Positions 9,803 to 61,578 of a stretch of 64,000 nucleotides of DNA are shown here, piece by piece (within the stretch, counting starts at the first letter, position 1; every line of letters starts with the position of its first letter). The stretch comes from Eledone cirrhosa (taxonomy: Eukaryota): positions 47,244,001-47,308,000 of the forward strand of contig OZ024748.1 in the NCBI GenBank assembly GCA_964016885.1. Reading direction: 5' to 3'. A program made the position numbers and the translations under genes. Under the pieces are notes generated by a model. That model made no database searches and was not told where the DNA came from. It saw only the letters and a list, made by a program, of their open reading frames with translations.

Positions 9803-9990
9803 TAACGAAGGAAAAGTGGTAAGGAACCAGGTGGACCATAACGCACCAAAGTACTCAATACTTGAGGTAGTAGAGTGGGTAATAGGAACCAGTAAGACCC
9901 GACAGCTGAGCTCAAGCCGTTTCGACGGCTAATTCTGAGAATTAGCCGTCGAAACGGCTTGAGCTCAGCTGTCGGGGTCTTACTGGTTCC
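9803..9990 (-). mobile_element. Major-family foldback fragment (3' half of hammerhead plus tail) in (TA)n
   Basis: Long arm and inverted short arm joined at gacggctaattctgagaattagccgtc. Confidence 0.82.
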
Positions 9991-10833
9991 TATATATATA
10001 TATATATATATATATATATATATATATATAAATGTAATTAATAATAACATATAGATAATTGATTTTACTTTTGGCACAAGGCCAGCAAATACTCAGTGCA
10101 TTACTGGTACTTTATTTTATCGACCCCGTAAGGATGAAAGGCAAAGTTAACCTCATTAACATATTAATAATAACATTCGATTCGTTTGCAATTATGGAGA
10201 CAAGCCTCATTTCTAAAGCCATGTCAATAGAGGGAACCCCTCATTCTTGCTCTTGTGTCGGGATGTAATTTTTTTATTTTATATATTATTTTTTTATTTT
10301 ATATATATTCTGAATTATTATTTCGTAGTAGTTTCTTTAGTATTTTGACCCCCTACTTGTTGACCTGTCAATGTAAGATAGATTTGGACGATTACTACTA
10401 ACTCATAAAATTCTTTCACTACAATCTCGTATTTAGTATTCCGTCCCACCTATGAAACTTTTCTATAGTTTAGCAGTACCAGTGAGAGATTTGATCACTG
10501 GGGTAGGGGAATAGTAACCAGAAATTGTTTTTTTTATATTTTTAAAATTCTTATTATTCTTCTGTATATTTACTCCATATCGATTTACTTATTGTTTCTA
10601 TTTCCACCCCTCCCCCTCCCTAGTATACTTCTCTTGACCTCTTATCCTTAGGATTCTGCTGTAGTTGGCACTATTACCGCACGACGGGGTTTCCTCCACT
10701 CCCTCTCCCTCTTTCTTCTACTGGCAAGTTCAGCTACCCCTTCCTTCCACAAAATGCCATGATAGAATTGTGTGTCTCAACAACAAACTTTTGACCAATC
10801 CTTGTGACAATCACTTTTACCATATATGGAATT

Positions 10834-10929
10834 ACTCCCTGAGAAGCTCGGCTATTCATGTACCAGGATAAAAATGTTCATTTAGTCCAGAATTAGCCGT
10901 CGAAACGGCTTGAGCTCAGCCGTCGGGGT
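10834..10929 (+). ncRNA. Type I hammerhead with a long stem II (core reads CTGAGAA)
   Basis: actcc CTGAGAA gctcggctattc..gaattagccgtc GAAA cggct tgagctc agccG TC ggggt. All three stems pair, with one deviation from CUGANGA. Confidence 0.7.
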
Positions 10930-11818
10930 CCTACTCGTTCCTATTACCCACTCTACTACCCTAAGTATTAAGTACTTTGGTGCGTTATGGTCCATCTAGC
11001 TCCATACCTCATTTCCTTCGTTATATATATATATATATAAATTTAGTAGGGACGAAACGGCTTCTCCATGCTTTCCATTTGGAAACCATGTTTATTCCCT
11101 TTCAGAAACTAAGTAGTTGGAGTGAAATTTTAGTAAGTAAGTTAATTTTCATAATTTTCTTATTTTACGTCTTTCATATATATATATATATATTTTACGT
11201 CTTTCATATATATATATATATATATATATATATATATATATATATATATATATATATATATGATGGCTGCCCGCTCGTTATCGAGTATGGCCATTGCACG
11301 GTATACCATTATTAATTAATTCTATCGTGCAATGTCTGTGCGTGAGGTTATTTTTTAAAGTGAGGAAAGACTGTGCACTGAGCCAGTCCCACACTCTGAG
11401 TGAGAGTAGCTATAACCCGAAAACAAGAAAATATCAACATCATCGGTAACTACTGAGCCCCAGGTTTTATATCGGAGTTATCCCTGTTTCCTGAGTTGCC
11501 TTCTCCTAGAAGTATGCCCTGACAAAGGCTAGGAGTCCTTCACTCCCAGTGGTTTAACCGCGCGATCGGGTCTCCAGCCCGATTATTTCTATGTTCCCGC
11601 GCATATACATACATATGTACATTTGTATATACATATTTACACATATTTGGATGGCCGGTGACGTAAGGCTTTGTTTGACTGATCAACGAAACAATTGTCA
11701 GTACTTTAAATAAAGCCCTTATTGTACACCCAACCATGTTACTCTTCCTCCTTTAACTATATTATACATATATAGATATTAACTTTTAGGTGACTAAAAC
11801 TGTTTCATTTGTATAAAA

Positions 11819-59070: not shown

Positions 59071-60591
59071 TTCTTTTCTCTGTCTCATATAACTAGCTGG
59101 GGTCTCTCTTCTCTGTCTCATATAACTAGCTGGGGTCTCTCTTCTCTGCCTCATATAACTAGCTCTGGTCTCTCTTCTCTGTCCCATATAACTAGCTCTG
59201 GTCTCTCTTCTCTCTCCCATATAACTAGCTCTGGTCTCTCTTCTCTCTCCCATATAACTAGCTCTGGTCTCTCTTCTCTCTCCCATATAACTAGCTCTGG
59301 TCTCTCTTCTCTGTCCCATATAACTAGCTCTGGTCTCTCTCCTCTGTCTCATATATCTAGCTGGGGTCTCTTTTCTCTCTCCCATATAACTAGCTCTGGT
59401 CTCTCTTCTCTCTCTCATATAACTAGCTCTGGTCTCTCTTCTCTCTCCCATATATCTAGCTCTGGTCTCTCTTCTCTCTCCCATATAACTAGCTCTGGTC
59501 TCTCTTCTCTCTTCCATATAACTAGCTGGGGTCTCTCTTCTCTCTCCCATATAACTAGCTCTGGTCTCTCTTCTCTCTTCCATATAACTAGCTGGGGTCT
59601 CTCTTCTCTGTCTCATATAACTAGCTCTGGTCTCTCTTCTCTCTTCCATATAACTAGCTGGGGTCTCTCTTCTCTGTCTCATATAACTAGCTCTGGTCTC
59701 TCTTCTCTCTTCCATATAACTAGCTGGGGTCTCTCTTCTCTGTCCCATATAACTAGCTCTGGTCTCTCTTCTCTGTCTCATATAACTAGCTCTGGCCTCT
59801 TTTCTCTCTCCCATATAACTAGTTCTGATCTCTCTTCTCTCTCCCATATAACTAGCTCTGGTCTCTCTTCTCTCTCCCATATAACTAGCTCTGGTCTCTC
59901 TTCTCTCTTCCATATAACTAGCTCTGGTCTCTCTTCTCTCTTCCATATAACTAGCTGGGGTCTCTCTCCTCTGTCTCATATAACTAGCTCTGATCTCTCT
60001 TATCTGTCCCATATAACTAGCTCTGGTCTCTCTTCTCTGTCTCATATAACTAGCTCTGGTCTCTCTTCTCTCTTCCATATAACTATCTGGGGTCTCTCTT
60101 CTCTGTCTCATATAACTAGCTGGGGTCTCTCTCCTCTGCCTCATATAACTAGCTCTGGTCTCTCTTCTCTGTCCCATATAACTAGCTCTGGTCTCTCTTC
60201 TCTCTCCCATATAACTAGCTGGGGTCTCTTTTCTCTCTCCCATATAACTAGCTCTGATCTCTCTTCTCTCTCCCATATAACTAGCTCTGGTCTCTCTTTT
60301 CTCTCCCATATAACTAGCTGGGGTCTCTTTTCTGTGTCCCATATAACTAGCTCTGGTCTCTCTCCTCTGTCTCATATAACTAGCTGGGGTCTCTTTTCTA
60401 TCTCCCATATAACTAGCTCTGGTCTCTCTTCTCTGCCTCATATAACTAGCTCTGGTCTCTCTCCTCTGCCTCATATAACTAGCTCTGGTCTCTCTTCTCT
60501 GCCTCATATAACTAGCTCTGGTCTCTCTTCTCTCTCCCATATAACTAGCTCTGGTCTCTCTTCTCTCTCCCATATAACTAGCTCTAGTCTC
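59071..60591. repeat. 33-bp minisatellite, about 46 copies
   Basis: Unit catataactagctctggtctctcttctctctcc with recurrent variants. Produces the (MGERRETRASY)n ORF. Confidence 0.95.
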
Positions 60592-61380
60592 TTATGTGTG
60601 CATGTTATTGCAGGTTTGATTGGGAACATTGCACCAGTTCACCCTCCTATTATATATACATATTCGCTCAACGTCATTGCAAAACCTTATATTTTTATTC
60701 TCAGAACTATCCTTTTTACGAATTTATTGTACAATGTTTCGGCCACACAAACACACACAACAAATACACACACACACACACAAACGCACATTTTAATAAA
60801 TATATATACACACTCATATATAGGTATTCTATATATAAACATATATATATATATATAAGCACACACACACACACACACACACAGACATATATATATATAT
60901 ATATATATATATATATATATATATATATATATATATATACGAGATGATGTTGACTGAAGTATCATTAAGGGAATTTGAAATTTCAAACGTTCTCGTACTT
61001 AAAGAATAAATCAATAATTGATCGATATAATCAGGTAAATAACCTGAGAGACGGTAAAAAAAGTGGACAGAATTTGTTCCGTCTCCTGGGGTACATTACC
61101 AAAATGTTTCATTTATTTATACATAATACACAGGAACTATTATTATTGTCCCTTAGTTTGACACGCTGCGTCTCATATATATATATATATATATATATAT
61201 ATATATATATATATATATATATATATATATATATATATATATATATTAGAATGATCGAGTATCGAAAAATCGGCGCACGAGTTCACGATAAACAAAATTC
61301 GAAATGAGCGGCAGAGGGCTCAATAATTCAGATGAATCAGAGCTATAACTATCGTTAAAATACCGTCTATATATATGTAT

Positions 61381-61578
61381 ATAACGAAGGAAATGTGGTA
61401 AGGAACCAGGTGGACCATAACGCACCAAAGTACTCAATACTTGGGGTAGTAGAGTGGGTAATAGGAACCAGTAAGACCCCGACGGCTGAGCTCAAGCCGT
61501 TTCGACGGCTAATTCTGGACGTCCAGAATTAGCCGTCGAAACGGCTTGAGCTCAGCCGTCGGGGTCTTACTGGTTCCT
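61381..61578 (-). mobile_element. Major-family foldback fragment in (TA)n
   Basis: Junction gacggctaattctggacgtccagaattagccgtc. Older diverged relatives at 6225-6328 and 36740-36899. Confidence 0.82.

Follow-up and report, generated by a model that had tools for sequence, protein, structure and literature searches.

Short palindromic copies of a Penelope-like retroelement in Eledone cirrhosa: probable products of twin priming on one capped RNA

A stretch of 64,000 nt from the genome of Eledone cirrhosa (GCA_964016885.1, contig OZ024748.1, positions 47,244,001-47,308,000, forward strand; hereafter the window) carries six short palindromic copies of a Penelope-like retroelement (PLE), and the question that they raise is how a retroelement comes to leave such miniature, head-to-head copies of itself. 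These mini-palindromes are head-to-head PLE insertions, and the answer that we consider likely is that they result from twin priming of a single capped RNA, with two complementary DNAs (cDNAs) running off at the cap and being joined at their ends. The initial annotation had described the six copies as a (TA)n tract, two head-to-head arms and a second (TA)n tract, each copy with a junction of its own; this architecture is present in all six (191-211 bp as delimited) and the junctions do differ. It had also described them as lacking the CUGANGA core of a hammerhead ribozyme; none of the six carries the ribozyme core, although the motif of that core is UUGANAA. Arm positions are given throughout in the coordinates of an uninverted window copy, which heads the following list of the copies.

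10309-11023, + strand: longer non-inverted 3' fragment from this PLE family, comprising pseudo-long terminal repeat (pLTR) and tail; source of the coordinates used
9803-9993, no strand assigned: mini-copy; tail arm (-) to the equivalent of 10888, tail-less arm (+) from 10889; blunt join
12988-13183, no strand assigned: mini-copy; tail-less arm (-) to 10885, tail arm (+) from 10889; 1-nt insert; short arm reaches further 5'
25101-25296, no strand assigned: mini-copy; both arms to 10885; join is a 4-nt palindromic overlap, GTAC subfamily
27714-27910, no strand assigned: mini-copy; tail arm (-) to 10894, tail-less arm (+) to 10881; 3-nt insert; short arm reaches 13 nt further 5'
50881-51089, no strand assigned: mini-copy; both arms to 10885; 10-nt insert similar to nearby arm sequence
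61382-61580, no strand assigned: mini-copy; both arms stop at G10885; perfect blunt palindrome
6200-6330, no strand assigned: seventh, older pair, absent from the initial annotation; tail-less arm to about 10881 behind a T-run, tail arm only about 10987-11023; arms non-overlapping

In the six mini-copies, one arm always has its 3' end at 11023 and the other at 10944, and the 5' limits of the tail and tail-less arms are, in order, 10888/10889, 10889/10885, 10885/10885, 10894/10881, 10885/10885 and 10885/10885. The end of the short arm at TTCCTAT (10944), with its TAT microhomology to (TA)n, had been recognised correctly; the long-arm end at 11023 also lies on TAT. These copies belong to a very large population, as a 25-mer of the arm has 34,757 exact matches genome-wide and head-to-head loci with 8-38 nt between their cores number at least 16,566, against 0 in a reversed-pattern control, so that the arrangement is not due to chance. 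The sample studied in detail comprised the window and 140 L-numbered stretches (1.31 Mb), of which 83 were tiles taken by position, some of them near earlier matches, and 57 were centred on exact 25-mer matches, which biases the sample towards young copies. In this sample, the two 3' ends are again fixed points.

10942-10944, + strand: putative upstream reverse-transcription start (TAT), where tail-less arms have their 3' end; it is the end point of 97 of 257 arms, and TA flanks 88 of these 97
10945-11023, + strand: PLE tail, 79 nt, its end the putative downstream reverse-transcription start; 11023 is the end point of 108 of 257 arms, and TA flanks 102 of these 108

The accessible part of PMC11167929 likewise describes the tail of an Anolis PLE as delimited by two start sites of the reverse transcriptase (RT).

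The parent of the mini-copies is, judged from its motifs, its layout and its (TA)n targets, a PLE of the Hydra-clade type. Stretch L100 shows the canonical Penelope arrangement of inverted truncated arm, direct pLTR, open reading frame (ORF) and pLTR. The open frame (4879-7236; 719 aa from the ATG at 5080) lies directly 3' of the tail and its protein carries YRDD and a C-terminal VIYQ..YIG resembling GIY-YIG, both read by eye. Compared with the available text of PMC8557442, the protein contains the Hydra-clade motifs RLRWRT (the RW[R/K] type, with R for K), HSDKTG (DKT), CNCPDRSIC (CxCX5C), CNLC (CxxC) and CKH (CxH). Pfam returned no family for this ORF or for its endonuclease part; the Atlas neighbours of the protein, at 0.97-0.99, are eukaryotic clusters, in some of which part of the members carry GIY-YIG or RVT_1. 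The features that define endonuclease-bearing (EN+) PLEs are found here, namely an ORF with RT and C-terminal GIY-YIG, partial-tandem pLTRs with an inverted 5'-truncated copy, and an optional tail at one end. Further likenesses to the Hydra-clade elements, as far as that source describes them, are the short ORF, the hammerhead in the pLTR and the (TA)n targets; in contrast to them, the copies described here are mostly minimal pairs of a 60-nt and a 140-nt arm whose 5' edge is fixed and which carry an extra G, the tail measures 79 nt instead of 30-40, and the ribozyme core is of the U3-A8 type. Contigs of X1 and X4 aligned to L100 show TA ends hanging loose at the two start sites, and their summed depth is far higher over the short segment, contig depth being no measure of copy number and the contigs of X5 and X6 being too thin. 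As separate observations, many longer copies (window 10309; L073, L075, L123 and others) begin exactly at 10309, a second fixed boundary that probably marks a deleted subfamily, also with the C3/A8 core mismatch; at L113:3229-3744, three direct tail-less stubs start from G10885 with a TA-rich repeat between them, probably a local tandem duplication; and the window holds at 15912-17439 a second PLE of this type, present as a broken copy, which in its endonuclease part shares 30% identity with the L100 protein (E 3e-23) and which ends in the hammerhead family of position 26296.

What sets the 5' limit of the arms? The initial annotation had placed the fold-back inside stem II of a hammerhead ribozyme, which it had recognised in the uninverted copy, and its reading of that copy as a hammerhead holds for a type I fold.

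10834-10929, + strand: type I hammerhead; stem I 10834-38/10925-29; core 10839-45; stem II 10846-57/10890-10901; GAAA 10902-05; near-palindromic stem III; predicted cut after C10924

In an alignment of 12 copies, 85% of cells are paired against 20-55% in slid controls, and two-sided changes occur at 3 pairs, all in stem II, this covariation resting mainly on two divergent rows. The core is UUGANAA..GAAA..UC (U3-A8) in most subfamilies, the window copy having a C3/A8 mismatch; the accessible part of PMC4209133 reports the U3-A8 variant from PLEs. Rfam gave no hammerhead match at the gathering threshold, and minimum-energy folds did not consistently recover the hammerhead. Four of 127 tail arms (L037:3841, L109, L113, L162) begin at the predicted cut, 10925-10926, too few for inferring cleavage.

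Loop II spans 10858-10889 (32 nt) and the 3' strand of stem II 10890-10901. Of the 12 arm ends of the six copies, 11 fall within the loop, at 10881-10889, and one (10894) within the stem. Among 219 anchored arms of the sample, 29 pass through the ribozyme and 190 are truncated; 155 of the 190 end at 10879-10890, 34 at 10891-10899 and, within these, 15 at 10897-10899. The modal end is G10885 (42 arms), with 12 arms at A10884. Exact genome-wide counts give 40,037 arms to G10885, 12,049 to A10880 and 7,003 to the 5' strand of stem II, the patterns being unequal in length and the ratios therefore approximate. Breakpoints plotted along the fold are thus non-uniform, with a sharp edge beside stem II, as had been anticipated, although the edge itself is in loop II. 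This bears on the earlier explanation that RT stalls at stem II and a single cDNA folds back and copies itself as far as the internal TAT. The arm ends do adjoin stem II, and the accessible part of PMC3846280 proposes self-priming for inverted PLE junctions. A hairpin stall, however, predicts ends at the stem base, 10899-10901, whereas most arms continue past the whole 3' strand into the loop; the natural loop is not kept as a spacer between the arms, and the extra G described below is not predicted.

The edge coincides with a conserved word and with a base that the genome does not encode, and both point to the 5' end of an RNA.

10880-10886, + strand: putative start of transcription at A10884, within the TYAGT of loop II; most arms have their 5' limit here, in many cases after an additional, non-genomic G

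TYAGT, which we take to be an initiator (Inr)-like word, is kept in 12 of 12 aligned copies, and the rest of loop II diverges. Genome-wide, the base before A10884 is G in 6,063 arms and A in 1,019, and it is G in 0 of the 100 intact-ribozyme copies listed. Of 82 distinct G loci listed and counted by eye, the partner arm cannot be the source of the G in 30; in 8 of these, one blunt join included, both arms carry it. The sequence 5' of the extra G varies among the listed loci, and that sequence is therefore no common exon or leader. G frequency is also position-specific (8/12 before A10884 vs 5/42 before G10885). In LINE-1 (L1), a long interspersed nuclear element (LINE), an extra G is interpreted as a copied cap in the accessible parts of PMC11702581 and PMC9341517. 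By analogy, the non-genomic G before A10884 may be read as the signature of a copied mRNA cap; transcription would then begin at A10884, and the short arms would be complete run-off cDNAs. The alternative, in which the boundary is another RNA end (a splice acceptor, TYAG|T, or a site of endonucleolytic cleavage), terminal transferase activity of RT adds the G and two cDNAs are still joined, appears unlikely to us. The YAG is conserved, a T-rich tract and CTAAT/CTAAA-like words lie upstream, the modal end G10885 would be the acceptor G, and in the accessible part of PMC4209133 the end of a Penelope intron maps in its ribozyme; against it stand the missing common exon or leader, the absence of a pile-up at a branch point, and the position-specificity of the G, which is not that of general tailing. 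A TATA-like word at -29 to -31 was not used as support. Some arms are preceded at their 5' edge by long T runs (window 6232-6290; L081, L085, L122), which suggests A-tailing or slippage of the cDNA end.

How the arms are paired speaks to the number of cDNAs and RNAs involved. Arm ends for this analysis were called haplotype-strict, replacing a relaxed calling that had over-extended arms and produced a false peak at 10876. Seventy of 71 close pairs consist of a tail arm and a tail-less arm, and in 65 of the 70 the furthest end lies at 10877-10888; both arms extend to 10885 or beyond in 16. The tail-less arm reaches further 5' by at least 3 nt in 15 of the 70, including the window copies at 12992 and 27714, the tail arm does so in 23, and the two agree within 2 nt in 32. 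Fold-back of a single cDNA cannot account for this, because a cDNA begun at 11023 must reach furthest 5' and yet the tail-less arm exceeds it in those 15 pairs; moreover, in L093, L082 and window 6200-6330 the two arms have no segment in common. Stalling and template switching at stem II is contradicted as a general cause by these pairs, by the loop ends and by its rarity in other hammerhead families. After 9 of the 71 pairs had been dropped, 62 ungapped ones remained, of which 50 are haplotype-concordant, against a shuffle mean of 10 and maximum of 19. Sharing of haplotypes would suit a folded-back cDNA as well, but with the other evidence we regard that account as very unlikely.

The two arms are probably two cDNAs from one RNA. 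A variant with run-off at the same start site but arms from two separate RNAs, one per RT subunit, has the merit that double copying of one RNA segment would require strand displacement, and some pairs are discordant. It is nevertheless quite improbable, as the two arms of a pair tend strongly to share a length class: the counts were 95 short-short, 11 long-long and 2 mixed pairs against 85, 1.3 and 21 expected (p ~5e-21; long arms paired within 6 kb, short-short neighbours more than 60 nt apart dropped). Joins in the 71 pairs comprise 34 with an insert, 26 with microhomology and 11 blunt, and form 63 distinct junctions, the commonest (5/71) found on five haplotypes, independence being judged by haplotype columns and not by a tree. 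The junctions therefore arose independently and do not descend from one master foldback; together with a parent that encodes RT, they bear out the earlier view of the copies as retro-products and not miniature inverted-repeat transposable elements (MITEs). Spread of a few master palindromes as MITEs or other non-autonomous copies, or collapse of long inverted insertions by deletion, is in our judgement scarcely credible: some junctions recur and the TA flanks resemble Tc1/mariner targets, but the termini are not mutual inverted repeats (tail against no tail), and deletion would yield neither the sharp edge nor the extra G. The flanks are (TA)n, in which a target-site duplication is unreadable. 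Like MITEs, the copies are about 200 bp long, palindromic, TA-flanked and of high copy number; unlike them, they have an internal and asymmetric inverted repeat, unique junctions and an RT-encoding parent, and a MITE assignment was rejected for want of terminal inverted repeats and master descent. A non-LTR retrozyme was also rejected: the accessible literature describes head-to-tail tandems with intact ribozymes, whereas these copies are head-to-head and have no core.

The geometry of the copies, their fixed 3' ends, sharp 5' edge and extra G, the symmetry and coupling of their arms and the independence of their junctions are direct observations, on which we build a model of twin priming. Transcription would start at A10884 inside loop II and give an RNA without the 5' half of the ribozyme, in which stem II could not form because the RNA starts inside loop II; the transcript's 5' end would carry half a hammerhead. 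The endonuclease would cut both (TA)n strands, and each end would prime at one of two internal UAU sites (10944 and 11023), which would lie only 61 and 140 nt from the cap, at the junction of 5' pLTR and ORF. Both cDNAs would run off the cap, copying it as C, one being displaced by the other during copying of the same RNA segment, and their 3' ends, once slightly trimmed, would be joined in one of three ways: blunt, through microhomology or by way of short templated inserts. Long-long pairs, which are rarer, would result from priming at a downstream pLTR copy. The accessible part of PMC11167929 reports that the purified PLE protein of Anolis carolinensis (Poseidon) cuts and extends both strands in vitro and starts at two internal sites flanking the tail, that ribozyme cleavage is dispensable and that a dimer is predicted, all of which resembles the scheme proposed here.

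Several points weigh against this model. In the same account of Poseidon, the RT start is not homologous to the cut DNA, unlike the two sites here, both of which match (TA)n by TAT. The start at A10884 is deduced from sequence, and the mode lies at G10885 (42 arms) and not at A10884 (12), so that trimming or a second start is needed. At 52 of the 82 listed loci, the G could come from the partner arm or a subfamily variant; TYAG, preceded by a CTAAT-like word, could instead represent a 3' splice acceptor; and the divergent subfamily (L081, L094) lacks the TATA-like word. Twelve of the 62 pairs are haplotype-discordant and one listed locus joins arms of two subfamilies, and gene conversion, or the dominance of one source locus in each period, could underlie the concordance instead of a single RNA molecule. 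The sharp peak is furthermore not universal, as two other hammerhead families (26886 and 52490) have about 980 joints in an upstream window against 26,625 arms.

In LINE-1 twin priming, two target ends prime on one RNA; this is occasional and inverts adjacent segments. The PLE copies share with LINE-1 the priming of two ends on one RNA and end-joining by microhomology, and also the extra G, which the parts of PMC11702581 and PMC9341517 available describe at complete 5' ends. They differ in that the process appears routine, uses two fixed sites and yields an inverted duplication, an inverted duplication and not an L1-type inversion because both cDNAs cover the same segment. We tentatively suggest, as a possibility somewhat short of even, that PLEs as a rule integrate by symmetric twin priming, in which an RT-endonuclease dimer would use both target ends and two tail-flanking sites of one capped sense RNA, and the overlapping cDNAs would be fused at their 3' ends. 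If so, the class-wide inverted pLTR and the one-sided tail would be two halves of one reaction, and the genome would hold more than 16,000 strong-stop records, every one of them comprising a 60-bp hairpin and a pair of start sites that face outwards.

Inverted pLTRs, tails, (TA)n targeting and hammerheads of PLEs are already known. The origin of their tandem and inverted structures is named an open problem in the accessible part of PMC8557442; that of PMC3846280 proposes self-priming on an antisense template, and that of PMC4209133 notes PLE ribozyme pairs on opposite strands 100-700 bp apart. A literature search, outside which lay supplements and most subscription journals with key PLE reviews among them, found no description of cap-bounded mini-palindromes or of PLE twin priming. 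With the cap signature on both arms, the evidence points to double copying of a capped sense RNA; this bears on the open PLE question, and twin priming would explain the puzzling inverted ends of PLEs. What looks like a very abundant MITE is thus a retro-product that annotation would misclassify; if transcribed, each copy would be expected to form a double-stranded hairpin.

In the other hammerhead families, truncation at stem II had been reported for 26886, 26296 and 52490; examples exist but are exceptions, at 1 of 21, 1 of 15 and 1 of 16 rows, respectively, the 21 rows of 26886 including one non-member and one locus listed twice. Three more of the 15 rows of 26296 end in the core just upstream, and the 52490 copy resembles an internal deletion more than a truncation. 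Families 26886 and 52490 together have 49 head-to-head joints at their stem II region, as a stalled, folded-back cDNA would leave, against 26,625 arms with an intact ribozyme. The roughly 980 joints lie in an equal window just 5' of AARATGGCG, presumably a YY1-like word, 60-80 nt further 5' than stem II, and mark a candidate start-site region. A cap G in the joints of family 26886 is suggestive but uncounted, being mostly ambiguous with the TG repeat of the partner. In L136 and L137, the 52490-family ribozyme region has five occurrences within about 17 kb, all in nearly the same context, which suggests a tandem array. Head-to-head pairs of other hammerhead families lie in the window at 1870-2702, 2967-3216 and 26705-27001, the first two with the ribozyme on both arms. 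Long palindromes with arms of 156-255 nt occur at 24717-25088, 50374-50705 and 36154-36669, the first two being of one family and abutting (TA)n; a loose scan found no hammerhead in the three. Finally, a LINE at 37843-43152 (-) has two long open frames of 625 aa and 1100 aa, the latter with matches to Exo_endo_phos, RVT_1 and zf-RVT.

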